Shown one piece after another: positions 50,856-64,000 of a stretch of DNA of 64,000 nucleotides (position 1 is its first letter; each line of letters opens with the position of its first letter). Source of the stretch: a virus. The DNA is taken from IMG/VR virus record IMGVR_UViG_3300042868_006787, positions 1 to 64,000 of that record. One strand, 5' to 3'. A model generated the notes under the pieces. That model saw nothing but the letters and a program-made list of their open reading frames with translations, was not told the DNA's origin and did no database searches. Made by a program: the position numbers and the translations under genes.

Positions 50856-51551
50856 TTATAATAACACAAAACTATTATCATTATAGGTTTCTATAGGATC
50901 TATATTTTTATTAATAGGAAAAATATCGTATGCAATTGTAATCCTATCCTTTGAAAGATTCCAAGGAGCCATAGCATGTGCGTGGCCTGTTTCTGAAAGA
51001 ATTGCAACATTGTTTTTATTATTAATAATTACATCTTTACCAAAAATTTTATAATATGTTTTAGAAGGCTCTGCTGAAACCGAATAATAGCCATGAAGAA
51101 ATGGGAAGCCTTCTCCTCCATGATCGTGCCAAGGCATTTTTTCTATCATCTCTTCAGTTATCTCAATATCCTCATTTGTACTATTTTTTACACTATATAA
51201 ATTAAACCATCCATGAATAGAAAAGTCTTGATCTTCAAAATTTACACCATAATACTCGCAAGCCTCAATAGTCATAGATCTTATAGATTTTAATAAATTA
51301 ATTAATGCTGGATGTTTAAAATTAAATATATTGTAATACTCGGTTGTCATTGATGGAATTCCATCTTTTTTATCAATAAACATTTCCTTTGGAAATTTAG
51401 TCATTGTATGATCTGTAACCTCATTAATCTTAAAAAATTGCTCGGCATATATTAAGTAATTAACTTTATGCAGAAATGAGTATAAATCTTCTAAGTCATT
51501 ATCTAATTCCCTAGAAAAAAATTTATGCTGTTTTTTCAAATGATTTTTCAT
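50856..51551 (-). CDS. Cupin/2OG-Fe(II) oxygenase-like protein (group B; start likely 51551)
   Basis: GWFN, WHDH, HGYYSV, SETGHAH, RITIAYD; ATGA coupling. Confidence 0.7.
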   Translation of the reverse strand: MKNHLKKQHKFFSRELDNDLEDLYSFLHKVNYLIYAEQFFKINEVTDHTMTKFPKEMFIDKKDGIPSMTTEYYNIFNFKHPALINLLKSIRSMTIEACEYYGVNFEDQDFSIHGWFNLYSVKNSTNEDIEITEEMIEKMPWHDHGGEGFPFLHGYYSVSAEPSKTYYKIFGKDVIINNKNNVAILSETGHAHAMAPWNLSKDRITIAYDIFPINKNIDPIETYNDNSFVLL

Positions 51552-52207
51552 GATAATGGAATCCATTTTCCTGGTTTGCCACCAGACATCATAGCAGATG
51601 GAACTATATCATAGGCAATTGTTATTCTTGGGTTTTTTTGAAACCAATCATCTCTTCCATGTGGGTGACCAGTTTCTGAAATAATTGCTCTATTGTTTTT
51701 ATTTACATTTTCAAAAATTTTATCTTCATTTCTGTCTATTTTATAAAAAGTAGAAGATGGCTCTGCATCTACACAGTAATATCCATGAAATGCTGGTGCG
51801 CCAATTCCATTCATATGATCATGAAAATGATTTGGATACTTTAATGGATTAACTCCCCCATTTTTTCCTTCATTTGGAGTTTCCTGGTCTAAATTGAACC
51901 ATCCGTGAATTAAATATTTTTCTTTATCCATATCTATTTCATAATATTCACAAACATCTTTCATTAATTTTCCAAGAGACTTGTAGAGTTGATAAATGCC
52001 TGGATGAATAAAAGTAAAAATATTATAATGATCAATGCCTAACTTTGTTAAAGATCCCATCCCTTTTCCATGCTTAAGCATTTCTTCTTTTGAAACATTT
52101 AGAATATTTTCATCTAAAATTAAAGATTCCATATCAACTAGATAAGACTTAAGACTATTTAAATCATTATCTAAAACAACATTAAAAAATTTTTGTGGTT
52201 TACTCAT
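51548..52207 (-). CDS. Cupin/2OG-Fe(II) oxygenase-like protein (group B; start likely 52207)
   Basis: GWFN, FHDH, HGYYCV, SETGHPH, RITIAYD; ATGA coupling. Confidence 0.7.
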   Translation of the reverse strand: MSKPQKFFNVVLDNDLNSLKSYLVDMESLILDENILNVSKEEMLKHGKGMGSLTKLGIDHYNIFTFIHPGIYQLYKSLGKLMKDVCEYYEIDMDKEKYLIHGWFNLDQETPNEGKNGGVNPLKYPNHFHDHMNGIGAPAFHGYYCVDAEPSSTFYKIDRNEDKIFENVNKNNRAIISETGHPHGRDDWFQKNPRITIAYDIVPSAMMSGGKPGKWIPLS

Positions 52208-52851
52208 GCCAGTGGAATCCAGTGCTGTTCCCAATTATGCATAATTCCTTTAAAAGGAATAACATCATAGGCAATTGTTATTCTTGGACCTTCCCAGTCC
52301 CAATCAGCCATGGCATGGGGATGGCCAGTTTCAGAAAGAATGGCTCTATTATTTTTATTTATATTTTCAAATTCTTTATCAAATACTTTGTAGTGAGTTG
52401 TTGATGGTTCTGCTTTTACAGAATAATAACCGTGAAACCACGGAGCGCCAGAGCCACCATGTTCGTGCCAATCAAGTTTTCCGGTGTGATTGTAATTAAC
52501 ATTAAACCAACCTTGTACCCAAAAATCCTCTTTTTCAAAATCAAGATCATAATGTTTACAGGCTTCAATAGTCATAGACCTTACAGATCTAAACAATTTA
52601 TGAATTGCTGGATGATAAAATTGAAAAACATTATATTTATTCCATTTGCTTGTAGTTATACTTCCAGAAGAGTCCCAAAGCGTCTTTTCATCTTTATCAT
52701 TTTTTAATATTTCGCCTTTTTTAATACGTTCAGATTGTATAATTAAAAAATTTGATAAATTATCTAGGTCAGAATCTAAAGTTCTTTCAAAAAATTTATG
52801 AGGAACGTTTTTATTTTGACTAGTGCTGTTTAAAGAAATATTTTCGTACAT
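52204..52851 (-). CDS. Cupin/2OG-Fe(II) oxygenase-like protein (group B)
   Basis: GWFN, WHEH, HGYYSV, SETGHPH, RITIAYD; TGATATACT at 52873-52881. Confidence 0.7.
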   Translation of the reverse strand: MYENISLNSTSQNKNVPHKFFERTLDSDLDNLSNFLIIQSERIKKGEILKNDKDEKTLWDSSGSITTSKWNKYNVFQFYHPAIHKLFRSVRSMTIEACKHYDLDFEKEDFWVQGWFNVNYNHTGKLDWHEHGGSGAPWFHGYYSVKAEPSTTHYKVFDKEFENINKNNRAILSETGHPHAMADWDWEGPRITIAYDVIPFKGIMHNWEQHWIPLA

Positions 52852-52899: not shown

Positions 52900-54180
52900 T
52901 TACTTATTATGTACTAGATAATCTCCAGCAATAAACCAGTCTTGTGGCTCACAGTTAAACTGATAGACTACGGACTCTGAAATATCAGTTGTTATAGATA
53001 CAATTTCTATTTCTGAAAAAGATCCATCTTGTTCAACTTTTATTAAAATATCTCCTTCTTCTATTTCAGAAGCATTTTTAACAACATAGGATGACCCCAC
53101 TTTAGCAAAAAATGGCTGTGTCATTGAATATTTGCTATGGGATTCTCCATTAAAATATACAACTGAATACTTTGTTGATGGAACAATATTTACAACAGTT
53201 GTTGAAACTATTCCATTTGAAGTTAATGCTGAACTAGAAAATTCTGAGTAGTCATAATCTCCAGCATCCCCTTCAGTTGACAATTCTGACAAACCTACTG
53301 AGTATACAGCATCTCCAACCTGAATATCTTTTGCTGCAACCAAACCAGTTGGCGTTCTAATTAGTGTGTCTGCTTCAATACAAGCACGTCCTCCTGGTGA
53401 AAAACCAAACGGTGTAAATCCAAATGGTGTAAATCCAAATGCGCCAAATGGTGTAAATCCAAATGCGCCAAATGGTGTAAATCCAAATGGTGTAAATCCA
53501 AATGCGCCAAATGGTGTAAATGAAAATGCATCAAACGGTACAAAACCAAATGCACCGAATGGTGCAAAACCAAATGGTGTAAATGAGAATGATGTTACTG
53601 ATCCTGAAGCAGCAGATGTGCCTGAATTACCGTTAGCGTTAGTTGCATAAACGGTGTATGTTTGTGCTGTTCCCGCTTCTTGCCCTACAGAAACAGATGT
53701 TCCCGCCTGTGTTGCTCCCTTGCCATCGCTAGAAGCCCAAGTGTAAGAAGTAATAGCACTTCCACCAGTTGCTGGTGCTGACCAAGAAACGTCGTCGTTT
53801 GCCGCTCCACCTTGTGCAGTTGCGCTAGGTGCTGATGGAGTTGCAGGAACTGTTGTTGCAGTTACTGAGCCGCTTGCTGCACTTGCTGCCGATGTTCCAT
53901 AAGTATTAGTTGCAGTTACTGTAAATGTATAAGCAGTATCACTTGATAAACCTGTAACCCGAATTGGAGAACTCGAGCCAGAAGCGGTGTAACTTCCTGG
54001 GGTTGATAAAACTGTATAAGAGGTTGCAGCATTTCTTGGGTCTGCAGTGAAGGAAACATCTACAGCACCATCATTATATGGACGAGCAGTTCCAACATTG
54101 GATGCAGAATCAATTGTTGGTGCATATGGCATTAAAAAGTCATTAGCACCTTGCGATTTACGACCACTTCTTTTACTCAT
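52900..54180 (-). CDS. FN3-FN3-(FGFTP/FGA)n-Hint domain protein
   Basis: Two FN3 domains (VTGLSSDTAYTFTVTATN; VSWSAPATGGSAITSY), 65-aa Phe repeat, Hint from C267 (CIEADTLI) to LVHNK-stop. Confidence 0.85.
   Translation of the reverse strand: MSKRSGRKSQGANDFLMPYAPTIDSASNVGTARPYNDGAVDVSFTADPRNAATSYTVLSTPGSYTASGSSSPIRVTGLSSDTAYTFTVTATNTYGTSAASAASGSVTATTVPATPSAPSATAQGGAANDDVSWSAPATGGSAITSYTWASSDGKGATQAGTSVSVGQEAGTAQTYTVYATNANGNSGTSAASGSVTSFSFTPFGFAPFGAFGFVPFDAFSFTPFGAFGFTPFGFTPFGAFGFTPFGAFGFTPFGFTPFGFSPGGRACIEADTLIRTPTGLVAAKDIQVGDAVYSVGLSELSTEGDAGDYDYSEFSSSALTSNGIVSTTVVNIVPSTKYSVVYFNGESHSKYSMTQPFFAKVGSSYVVKNASEIEEGDILIKVEQDGSFSEIEIVSITTDISESVVYQFNCEPQDWFIAGDYLVHNK
53395..53589 (-). repeat. Coding tandem repeat: ten F[GS]FxP pentapeptides plus five F[GD]A tripeptides
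   Basis: 15-nt (tttggatttacacca) and 9-nt (tttggcgca) units read directly. Confidence 0.95.
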
Positions 54181-61736: not shown

Positions 61737-62267
61737 ATGAATAAAGAAGATTTTATTACTGGAATTGCCGGAAGTTTTATTGCTGCCGTAGTTGGTTTAA
61801 CTGGGGCTAACGCAAATCTAGAAGAAATTGTACCTATAGAAACTGCAAATGAAAAAGTTGAGTCGGGGACTCCGTCCGCAATAAAAGCAAAATATTCTAA
61901 CGTTACAACCCTGTCAGATAAAGAGTTAAAGGTTTTATTGAAAGCGGTTGGCTTTGACGGACAAGGTTTAAAAATGGCATGGGCAGTTGCTAAAAAAGAA
62001 AGCAATGGCAGGCCTCTGGCCTTTAACGGCAACAAGGACACTGGCGACCACTCGTTTGGAATATTTCAGATTAATATGAATGGAAGATTAATGGAGGATA
62101 GACTAGAAAAATTTAATCTTAACTCGGTCTCTGATCTTTTTAATCCAGTAACCAATGCAGAGATTGCTTTCTACATGACAAAAGGCGGAAAAGATTGGTC
62201 ATCTTGGACTTATCTTGAGGGACAAAGAATTAAAGAATTTTTAACTAAATATCCGACAATTAATTAA
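61737..62267 (+). CDS. Secreted lysozyme-like lytic transglycosylase (start 61737)
   Basis: AGGAGG RBS; signal-like N-terminus; AVAKKES (catalytic Glu), SFGIFQIN, LFNPVTNA, DWSSW. Confidence 0.85.
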   Translation: MNKEDFITGIAGSFIAAVVGLTGANANLEEIVPIETANEKVESGTPSAIKAKYSNVTTLSDKELKVLLKAVGFDGQGLKMAWAVAKKESNGRPLAFNGNKDTGDHSFGIFQINMNGRLMEDRLEKFNLNSVSDLFNPVTNAEIAFYMTKGGKDWSSWTYLEGQRIKEFLTKYPTIN

Positions 62268-62887
62268 AAATAGGCAATAGCCGTATATTTTGTTCCAGAA
62301 GTAACTCTAAGTTCTCTGTGTCTATAGTTTTTGTTTGCTGGATATATCAAAACATCTCCTGCAGATAAACTTATAATTTCGTTGCCAACTCTATTTTCAA
62401 ATTGAAATTCACCACCAGCATAGTTGTCGTTTAATGCTATAACAATTGTATAAAAATGTTTTTGTCCATCTCTATCTAAATCATCGTGAAAATCAGAACT
62501 TTCAATTTGTTCGTAAATTGTAAAATTTTTTATTTTTTTTATTGACAGTTCGTATTCTTTTATATAATCATACAGAAAGGGAAAGGCATAGTCAATTAAT
62601 TCAGATTTTAAATTACTTTTTTTAATAGATTGCCCTAAATTGTTTGCCACTAAGTTAATTTCTGAAATTACTAAATTAGGAACCAATAAAAAATTATCTT
62701 CGCTTGGCAAGTTAATAACTTTTTGATTGACAATATGATCAGTATCTCTAATATTTTTTAAAGAAGAAATGCTCCATACATTTTTTGTTGATGGCTCATT
62801 GTTTACTGTCTGTAACAATTCTATAAAATTTTTATTTTTATTCTCAGAATAAAGGATAACAAAGTTATCTAAAAAAGTTTTATTCAT
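62264..62887 (-). CDS. Prolyl-4-hydroxylase-like 2OG-Fe(II) oxygenase
   Basis: FHDD, LNDNYAGGEFQF, AGDVLIYPA, HRELRVTSGTKY. Confidence 0.8.
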   Translation of the reverse strand: MNKTFLDNFVILYSENKNKNFIELLQTVNNEPSTKNVWSISSLKNIRDTDHIVNQKVINLPSEDNFLLVPNLVISEINLVANNLGQSIKKSNLKSELIDYAFPFLYDYIKEYELSIKKIKNFTIYEQIESSDFHDDLDRDGQKHFYTIVIALNDNYAGGEFQFENRVGNEIISLSAGDVLIYPANKNYRHRELRVTSGTKYTAIAYF

Positions 62888-63506: not shown

Positions 63507-64000
63507 CTACTTATTATGCACTAAATAATTACCCGCAATAAACCAATCTGCTGGCTCACAACTAAATTGATAAACAGTTGTGTCTTTTATTAATGGAGTT
63601 ATAGTTTCAATTAAAACTTCTGTAAAACTTCCATCTTCATTTACTTGTATCAAATAATCTCCGACCTGTAGAGCCCCTGTTGGAACTACTTGATAAAAGT
63701 CATTTGATTTTGTAAACATTGGCTGACTAATTGAAAATAATTTTTCTAAATCATCATTAAAATATATTACTTCGTTTTTTGCAAAAGGCTCTATAGCAAC
63801 AATGCGTGTGGTTGTTTTGTTTAATGGTGTAAGAGTTTTTGAAATCATTCCTACATAATCAAAATCATATTGCCCTGTAATATCGCTTTGTGGAATTTCT
63901 AATAAATTAACGCTGTCAATTTCATCATCAACTTTTAGGTCTTTGGCTGCAATTGGGCCATTAGGTGTGCTAATTAAAGTGTTTTCATCTATGCAGTTTG
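63507..64000 (-). CDS. C-terminal Hint domain of a protein starting beyond the window (ORF track start is internal)
   Basis: Frame open to the edge: NCIDENTLISTPNGPIAAKDLKVDDEI...VYQFSCEPADWFIAGNYLVHNK-stop; Cys codon at 63993-63995. Confidence 0.85.
   Translation of the reverse strand, partial: NCIDENTLISTPNGPIAAKDLKVDDEIDSVNLLEIPQSDITGQYDFDYVGMISKTLTPLNKTTTRIVAIEPFAKNEVIYFNDDLEKLFSISQPMFTKSNDFYQVVPTGALQVGDYLIQVNEDGSFTEVLIETITPLIKDTTVYQFSCEPADWFIAGNYLVHNK

Follow-up and report, generated by a model that had tools for sequence, protein, structure and literature searches.

P0001 is a 426-residue protein encoded in a 64,000-nucleotide (nt) stretch of viral DNA (positions 1 to 64,000 of IMG/VR virus record IMGVR_UViG_3300042868_006787, hereafter the window), and it carries an array of short repeats rich in phenylalanine, glycine and proline immediately ahead of a C-terminal Hint domain. 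We found that this array is kept in all homologs listed and in all viral loci fetched, including those in which the Hint domain is missing, and that P0001 is encoded in a phage fibre module. Based on these observations we tentatively propose, with a confidence slightly short of even, that the Hint domain removes itself and thereby leaves a fibre accessory that binds the cell wall with a sticky aromatic tail, which works through its composition. Literature searches found no description of either the repeat or the architecture, and the published mentions of phage Hint domains that we found concerned terminase inteins.

The aromatic array and the Hint domain behind it

The original prediction had described residues 198-262 of P0001 as an array built from two interchangeable units, and the translation parses residue for residue in this way: FSFTP FGFAP FGA FGFVP FDA FSFTP FGA FGFTP FGFTP FGA FGFTP FGA FGFTP FGFTP FGFSP, then GGRA/C. 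Phenylalanine supplies 25 of the 65 residues and Asp217 is the sole charged one, both as claimed. A Phe therefore occurs every 2.6 residues and Pro accounts for 15% of the array; outside residues 198-264, P0001 has 10 Phe in 359 residues. The Pfam pentapeptide models gave no match to P0001 at an expectation value (E) of 1 or below, and, unlike in pentapeptide repeats, the three-residue FGA units interrupt the five-residue register. An Atlas model of P0001 had a predicted template modelling score (pTM) of 0.45 and a mean predicted local distance difference test score (pLDDT) of 0.72. A structural search of the Atlas with the array returned no neighbour above a template modelling score (TM) of 0.31, and the feature search gave no usable match.

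At the DNA level, Tandem Repeats Finder (TRF) assigned periods of 15, 24, 39 and 63 to the array, with 100% matches over a period-24 stretch at 53420-53489. Within residues 224-257, five FGFTP units differ only by a single CCA/CCG alternative and three FGA units are identical. Units near the Hint domain had been said to be almost identical in DNA and distal ones to have diverged; this holds for the Hint-proximal units and for the four distal ones, but the FGFSP unit that actually touches the Hint domain (residues 258-262) has diverged as well. The homogenised block is thus interior and Hint-proximal and does not reach the very edge. Because the units measure 15 and 9 nt, slippage preserves the reading frame, and copy number does differ in frame among close relatives, both in the homologs and in the viral loci, in line with the slippage expansion that had been proposed. 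TTT is the dominant codon of the array, and the genome is AT-rich. Synonymous divergence within the gene was uninformative on selection (across 45 unit pairs, 40 codon differences were synonymous and 40 non-synonymous), and for this reason selection is argued from the homologs. Logan short-read contigs from four of four lake runs end at 53440 and restart at 53492, none of them spanning the repeat; the number of array units in short-read assemblies, possibly including the window itself, calls for caution. An open reading frame (ORF) on the opposite strand (53366-53650), with PNGVN repeats, is a mirror artefact of the array.

That a Hint domain lies directly behind the array is indicated weakly by Pfam and strongly by profile comparison. 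A single-sequence Pfam search with P0001 gave weak matches to Hint_2 (E 0.049) and Intein_splicing towards the C-terminus (last 160 residues). The best match of a profile built from 27 Hint-only relatives was, over the full length, PDB 2lwy, a solved bacterial intein-like (BIL) domain (E 1.4e-10), followed by MJ0781 (E 3.3e-9) and several archaeal mini-inteins. The C-terminal domain almost certainly has the Hint fold. An exhaustive phmmer search with the 160-residue Hint alone against 1.84 billion representatives (50% clustering) returned only 213 proteins at E<=1e-3, by which measure the clade is small and distinct. Among 150 listed Hint matches, 90 have at least 44 residues upstream, and 88 representatives were aligned for a residue census. 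The Hint match ends no more than 10 residues from the end of the protein in 79 of the 90. Cys267 is invariant in 50 aligned homologs, and position 1 across the clade is Cys in 77 of 88 representatives and Ser in 11. All 88 have Ser or Thr in block B; the block-B His position is occupied by His in 40, Gln in 38 and Glu in 10, and P0001 has Gln (Gln355). The C-terminal His is found in 70 of 88 and the Asn in 69.

Conservation of the array and loss of the Hint domain

To place the array among its relatives, we searched 5.8 billion proteins, which yielded 1300 matches at E<=1e-3 among 8000 scored candidates, and IMG/VR, in which 442 of 498 candidate stretches proved to carry a gene for a relative and 80 loci were fetched. 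The array stands in the same place in all 120 homologs listed (50-100% identity; 9-28 Phe), and all 80 viral loci keep an array of the form aromatic-x-Phe-x-Pro, 25-112 residues in length. Across both sets the number of Phe per array runs from 9 to 40. A screen by Phe count recognised 76 of the 80 arrays, and the remaining four have Tyr at the first unit position. The first unit of the array (F198, S199, F200 and P202) is invariant in the 50 aligned homologs, five- and three-residue units occur in varying orders among those listed, and the aromatic and proline composition persists at about 50% overall identity and across unit types. Thus the Phe/Pro periodicity is retained in homologs and no generic linkers take its place. 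Retention by each of the 120 listed homologs and each of the 80 loci shows that the array is not a product of chance, and we have next to no doubt that it is real and selected. Two loci are of separate interest. In the FN3 gene of L085, a contig of a metagenome-assembled genome (MAG), the array is hyper-expanded to a long FGA run, a case of extreme unit slippage; in L054 (2329-3637) a frameshift within the repeat shifts the Hint domain to another frame (tblastn E 1e-20), which could reflect either faulty assembly or genuine slippage.

We then asked how the residues preceding the Hint domain are composed across its clade. In the 40 residues upstream, Phe, Tyr, Trp and Pro together make up at least 30% in 75 of 90 full-length representatives and at least 40% in 61; of 68 control windows placed 100 residues further upstream, only 5 reach the 30% level. 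Among the 15 exceptions, several have an insertion in their Hint that puts them out of register. The repeats occur in many flavours, FGFTP/FGA, FGVFGFSP, YxFTP, YxFxP, FFPP, YFPYFPP, WFPP, FFxPPG, YYAPP and near-pure Pro, with units of 4 to 8 residues. The Phe/Gly array of P0001 is thus one flavour of a module consisting of an aromatic/proline repeat and a terminal Hint, and what the flavours have in common is composition and not a fixed register. Composition as the common property argues against a single ordered fold and against bioactive peptide cores.

The Hint domain itself is less constant. We classified the C-terminal states of 76 FN3-type proteins (75 loci and the window): 24 have Cys at position 1 with a terminal His-Asn or His-x-Lys, 20 have the Cys without either ending, 15 start with Ser, six fall outside the classifying pattern (three of them visibly with Cys), nine have no Hint, and two, the frameshifted L054 and L068, which is cut by a contig end, were excluded and are omitted from the Hint-state counts and the tree labels. 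The nine Hint-less genes stop 1-7 residues past the array (24 in L070); tblastn detected no Hint remnant behind them, and the next gene follows at 40-110 nt. Their ends (...SPPFR, ...FVPR) resemble the residues that precede the Cys in Hint-bearing relatives (...SPPR/C). On a tree of the N-terminal region, absence of the Hint amounts to five changes, at least two of which are forced by well-supported branches. The array, in contrast, is never lost in the 80 loci. Because the array is kept where the Hint is lost, we regard the array as the constant element and the Hint as dispensable. The claim that Hint cleavage would turn the array into the new C-terminus finds a natural counterpart in these nine homologs: their ending at the junction lends indirect support to self-cleavage, and most simply the mature product would end with the array. 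In L070 (7989-8942) a 24-residue Cys-rich tail stands in place of the Hint and is followed by sulfotransferase-like, DUF6171-like and DUF6065-like ORFs.

Gene layout, neighbourhood and host

Coordinates of P0001, its parts and its principal neighbours are collected in the table. All genes of the region lie on the minus strand, and a Shine-Dalgarno-like GGGGAG precedes the ATG of P0001 by about 10 nt. Within the N-terminal tag, the 50 aligned homologs show no variation at Gly6, Phe15 or Pro18, and conservation at Ser9 is at least 90%.

Table. Features of P0001 and of neighbouring genes (window coordinates unless stated otherwise)
Feature	Position	Strand	Basis or remark
Whole gene, fibre-module accessory protein P0001, 426 residues and stop codon	52900..54180	(-)	ORF and translation
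Basic N-terminal tag, residues 1-18, MSKRSGRKSQGANDFLMP	54127..54180	(-)	Conserved in homologs
FN3 domain 1, residues 34-102	53875..54081	(-)	Pfam fn3 E 4.8e-7, 30.3 bits versus cut-off 25
Ig-like/FN3-like domain 2, residues 119-189	53614..53826	(-)	Two Pfam fn3 stretches; PKD_6 E 0.0015, below cut-off
Phe/Gly/Pro array, residues 198-262	53395..53589	(-)	10 FxFxP units and 5 F[GD]A units
Homogenised array core, residues 224-257	53410..53511	(-)	Unit-by-unit DNA comparison, TRF
Junction GGRA/C, residues 263-267	53380..53394	(-)	Predicted scissile bond Ala266-Cys267
C-terminal Hint (bacterial intein-like) domain, residues 267-426	52903..53382	(-)	Profile match to PDB 2lwy
Block B, S-M-T-Q, residues 352-355	53116..53127	(-)	Gln replaces canonical His; aligns to TFDH of 2lwy
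Terminal His424-Asn425-Lys426, then stop codon	52903..52911	(-)	Translation, homolog alignment
Three tandem His-rich paralogs, 215-236 residues, directly downstream	50856..52851	(-)	Candidate modifying enzymes
Upstream fibre gene, 579 residues, Mtd_N start, C-terminal domain of about 96 residues	54225..55964	(-)	Pfam Mtd_N, PHROG tail families
Prolyl 4-hydroxylase (P4H)-type 2-oxoglutarate (2OG) oxygenase	62264-62887	(-)	2OG-FeII_Oxy_3 E 1.1e-6, above cut-off; downstream of PASTA paralog
Stand-alone degenerate Hint-like ORF, 203 residues	62890-63501	(-)	Pfam Hint E 0.0018, below cut-off
Second array and Hint paralog, 314 residues, with PASTA	63507..64000, running to contig 64451 (L081:1507-2451)	(-)	PASTA E 6e-6, above cut-off

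In 74 of 77 loci a fibre gene lies immediately upstream, and portal, protease and capsid genes were recognised further along by PHROG matches. The second paralog is 50% identical to P0001 over array and Hint and has a similar N-terminal tag; it carries PASTA instead of FN3, its units include FGFTPVV[AS], and it ends in YLVHNK. Before it comes a 206-residue protein that, over its last 96 residues, shares 57% identity with the C-terminal end of the fibre protein. The array and Hint module is also C-terminal in proteins of 875-944 residues (two of three scanned carry PASTA) and in PASTA proteins of about 300 residues. The degenerate Hint-like ORF has Gly at the position of Cys1, lacks the terminal His-Asn and lies between the PASTA paralog and the P4H-type oxygenase. 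Between the two array and Hint cassettes, among fibre genes, the segment 58458-60433 (minus strand) encodes a methyltransferase, a GT25-like glycosyltransferase and a third, overlapping ORF in which no Pfam family scored above its cut-off.

Enzyme-like genes recur beside the array. In 77 of 78 loci, at least one of the His-rich, DUF6065-like and P4H-type families occurs among the next six ORFs downstream; a His-rich paralog is within the next five ORFs in 63 of the 78 and directly next in 42. The His-rich proteins share invariant H-x-H, H and R-x-T positions, and an Atlas language-model lead connects them to clusters bearing PF13759 (score 0.96). Five YxFxP loci have only DUF6065-like genes, and in L069 (9344-15854) a DUF6065 gene and six P4H-type (PF13640) paralogs come after a Hint gene with FFxPPG repeats, Pro-Pro-Gly being the classic motif of collagen P4H. 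This arrangement suggests that the tail may be modified by products of neighbouring genes, although the loci are related and the pairing of flavour with enzyme is not independent evidence. A collagen-like protein of 240 residues (L081:4614-5336, contig 66614-67336, minus strand; Pfam Collagen E 6.5e-7) is encoded near the P4H-type and GT25-like genes, and it could be an alternative substrate for them.

With regard to the host, whole P0001 had no tblastn match among 50,697 records of cultured phages, and a PHROGs search with it returned 0 families. The C-terminal domain of the fibre protein is 45-47% identical to minor tail proteins of Gordonia phages, which supply 223 of the 256 matching records. 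In one of these, Gordonia phage Baddon, gene 40 (L161:3800-4408; 202 residues) follows a minor tail gene that shares the domain; it has a basic, Arg/Gly-rich tag at its start, and neither an aromatic repeat nor a Hint. The head protease is 41-43% identical to Streptomyces phage counterparts, and the FN3 pair comes closest to Actinomycetota proteins, sharing 40-55% identity with pairs encoded in actinobacterial genomes. In a search of MAGs, 5 of 79 loci carry the aromatic-repeat family (four of them with the FN3 gene); 74 have no aromatic array, most of these match only the FN3 pair, and they are mostly Actinomycetota. Because of PASTA, the protease resembling that of Streptomyces phages, the Gordonia link and the Actinomycetota FN3 relatives, the host is probably a Gram-positive actinobacterium. 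The stretch is present in 24 lake or freshwater runs from 24 studies, all of them possible sources of the record and hence not independent; the habitat is lake water, as given by runs that may be its source.

Proposed mechanism, alternatives and related systems

These observations provide the basis for a model in which Cys267 would attack the carbonyl of Ala266 in an N-S acyl shift, and the resulting thioester would be resolved, most simply by water, so that the Hint departs and leaves the array as a free C-terminus. The exposed tail would act by composition rather than by a fixed fold, as an extended, uncharged, proline-punctuated aromatic strip that makes many weak contacts with cell-wall glycan, with other hydrophobic surfaces of the host or with itself, in cooperation with the wall-binding FN3 or PASTA domains ahead of it. 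In-frame slippage of the 15- and 9-nt units would set its length, neighbouring enzyme-like genes may modify it, and the Hint could serve as a removable cap that keeps a greasy tail harmless until folding or assembly. Judging from the catalytic positions and the Hint-less homologs, we consider self-cleavage between Ala266 and Cys267 probable; an adhesive or cohesive role of the tail is a more tentative assignment, possible though rather doubtful.

Several points weigh against this proposal. Cleavage, location in the virion and binding are all predictions. The block-B His of canonical inteins promotes the acyl shift and, given Gln in its place, processing of P0001 may be slow, conditional or absent. 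If the Hint serves only for removal, its retention in most lineages needs a reason, and the cap is a guess. Phe stacks on sugars more weakly than Trp or Tyr does. A fibre shaft or another ordered fold could account as well for the regular periodicity and for the variation in copy number. The MAGs that carry the array are binned inconsistently, as Flavobacterium, Chitinophagaceae, Methylococcus and Gammaproteobacteria, and are probably mis-binned phage contigs. Finally, the His-rich paralogs had Pfam matches in 0 of 29 members, only chance matches in a PDB profile search, no PHROG with a function and an hhalign probability of 0.6% against the P4H-type set. We considered oxygenases as an identity for these paralogs and do not call them so, as Pfam, PDB, PHROG and hhalign all lacked support.

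One alternative to our proposal is that the array is chiefly a substrate of the neighbouring enzyme-like genes, through hydroxylation of Pro or Phe or glycosylation of Thr or Ser, and that the modified tail is an adhesive or cross-linker. The two can coexist. The near-constant presence of these families downstream, the six P4H-type paralogs behind the FFxPPG repeat, the restriction of YxFxP loci to DUF6065-like genes, the GT25-like and methyltransferase genes nearby and the lead to PF13759 clusters all speak for it; the failure to place the His-rich paralogs in any known family, the relatedness of the loci and the collagen-like gene as a competing P4H substrate speak against it, as does the replacement of Thr at unit position 4 by Ala or Val. 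We give it a minor but real chance of being the better description. An ordered fibre shaft, in which at least three chains pack their Phe into a beta-structured rod and the Hint is a self-removing assembly chaperone, seems unlikely, even though the strict aromatic/Pro periodicity, the invariant first unit, whole-unit copy-number variation typical of fibre shafts and the position in a fibre module directly after the fibre gene would all agree with it, and phage fibres and spikes are known with C-terminal chaperone domains that cleave themselves off. Equivalent positions in the clade hold FFPP, YFPYFPP, FFxPPG or near-pure Pro, for which no common beta fold is possible, five- and three-residue units are mixed in varying orders, and the structural search with the array found no counterpart. 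A passive spacer between FN3 and Hint, maintained by slippage and having no function itself, would account for the highly variable length (25-112 residues) and for the recently homogenised DNA core. It is improbable, however, since the aromatic and proline composition is kept at about 50% identity and across unit types, the array outlasts the Hint and so is not merely a connector to it, and generic linkers are not 38% Phe. As for the multi-core precursor of small Pro-terminated peptides that the original prediction had offered as one option, the units are indeed short, repeated and Pro-ended, with enzyme-like genes adjacent; yet they abut without spacer, recognition or cleavage sites, are joined to folded domains (FN3, PASTA or large fibre-like ones) in a tail-fibre cluster, and are freely swapped for other aromatic/Pro flavours across the clade, which fits a compositional element. 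No protease, peptidase or cyclase family was found among the part of the neighbouring ORFs scanned with Pfam. We give this option almost no credence.

A different use of the Hint thioester has also to be weighed, namely transfer of the tail C-terminus to a lipid, as in Hedgehog, or to an amine of a virion protein or of a peptidoglycan stem peptide. All 88 representatives keep a nucleophile at position 1, a BIL domain is the closest relative of solved structure, and type-A BIL domains achieve ligation when a free amine attacks the thioester, according to the excerpted text of PMC4031507. Wall-binding PASTA and FN3 domains occur in the same chains, and the block-B Gln might delay the reaction. 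Against transfer, nine homologs function with no Hint at all, the terminal His-Asn or His-x-Lys is present in only 24 of 76 FN3-type proteins, the 160-residue domain ends in HNK with no extra sterol- or adduct-recognition region, and any acceptor is hypothetical. These data make transfer quite unlikely. A bolder form, which we regard as a long shot, casts the Hint as a latent warhead of the virion: Gln in block B would make self-cleavage slow, the precursor would be carried at the tip of the fibre, and PASTA or FN3 would bring a stem-peptide amine close enough to attack the thioester, so that the aromatic tail becomes covalently tied to the host, a capture in phage adsorption resembling that by sortases or thioester adhesins. 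In a milder form, contact with the host would merely trigger unmasking of the sticky tail.

Several known systems resemble the proposed self-removal of the Hint and exposure of the tail in part. Like the type-A BIL domain of 2lwy, that of P0001 has an N-terminal Cys, a C-terminal His-Asn and no Cys, Ser or Thr at +1, and both are found in variable, non-housekeeping proteins. As far as the excerpted text of PMC4031507 goes, His-Asn and the lack of a +1 nucleophile define the type, and cleavage is expected to dominate over splicing. In contrast to that type, the domain of P0001 is terminal, with one Lys and a stop after His-Asn and nothing to ligate, and has Gln in block B; many members of its clade lack His-Asn or start with Ser, and the clade domain is phage-encoded and regularly lies behind an aromatic/Pro repeat. 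Canonical inteins lie inside conserved host proteins and have Cys, Ser or Thr at +1 for splicing; P0001 differs in having Lys at +1 and then a stop, and its Hint-less homologs simply end, with no C-extein. As in Hedgehog and Hog proteins, a C-terminal Hint would release an N-terminal functional part, and the nine Hint-less homologs are paralleled by nematode hh-related genes, some of which encode the N-terminal part without a Hint (PMC2362128, excerpted text). Unlike those proteins, P0001 has no sterol-recognition region and ends in HNK, no adduct is known, and its Hint is nearer in sequence to BIL domains and mini-inteins than to Hog domains. Chaperones of the peptidase S74 type are C-terminal domains of phage tail spikes and fibres that cleave themselves off. 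The likeness lies in a C-terminal domain of a fibre-module protein that would be expected to cut itself free after its job; it is an analogy only, given an unrelated fold and a chemistry in which the Hint uses a Cys thioester, and S74 is absent from the Pfam matches of P0001 at E<=1.

For the array itself the original prediction had pointed to FG nucleoporins. These nuclear-pore proteins bear FG motifs (FxFG or GLFG) and hydrophilic spacers in a long disordered domain. The resemblance stands as far as composition goes, with uncharged, Phe/Gly-rich repeats and an FxF core similar to FxFG; it breaks down in the absence of hydrophilic spacers, the dense spacing of Phe and the Pro content, in the length of 65 residues rather than hundreds, in the lack of homology and in the phage fibre context. 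By this analogy, self-association through cohesive, multivalent Phe contacts is plausible. A further parallel is offered by viral prolyl 4-hydroxylases that act on proline-rich repeat proteins, in that P4H-type 2OG oxygenase genes are found here beside genes of Pro-containing repeat proteins; the genes directly downstream of P0001 differ in belonging to the unclassified His-rich family.

Hint domains are known as inteins, as processors of Hedgehog and as toxin-releasing BIL domains. Here a distinct Hint clade ends fibre-cluster proteins of abundant uncultured lake phages (213 representatives, at least 1300 family members and 442 viral loci), which offers a testable case of self-processing in phage receptor-binding machinery. 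If the tail is only a linker, the finding shrinks to a new domain architecture. The compact terminal Hint domains, with their unusual block-B residues, may interest protein engineers, the array is a candidate substrate for orphan oxygenase-like phage genes, and its many flavours form a natural series of aromatic low-complexity tails in which the physics of adhesion, cohesion and sugar stacking could be compared.

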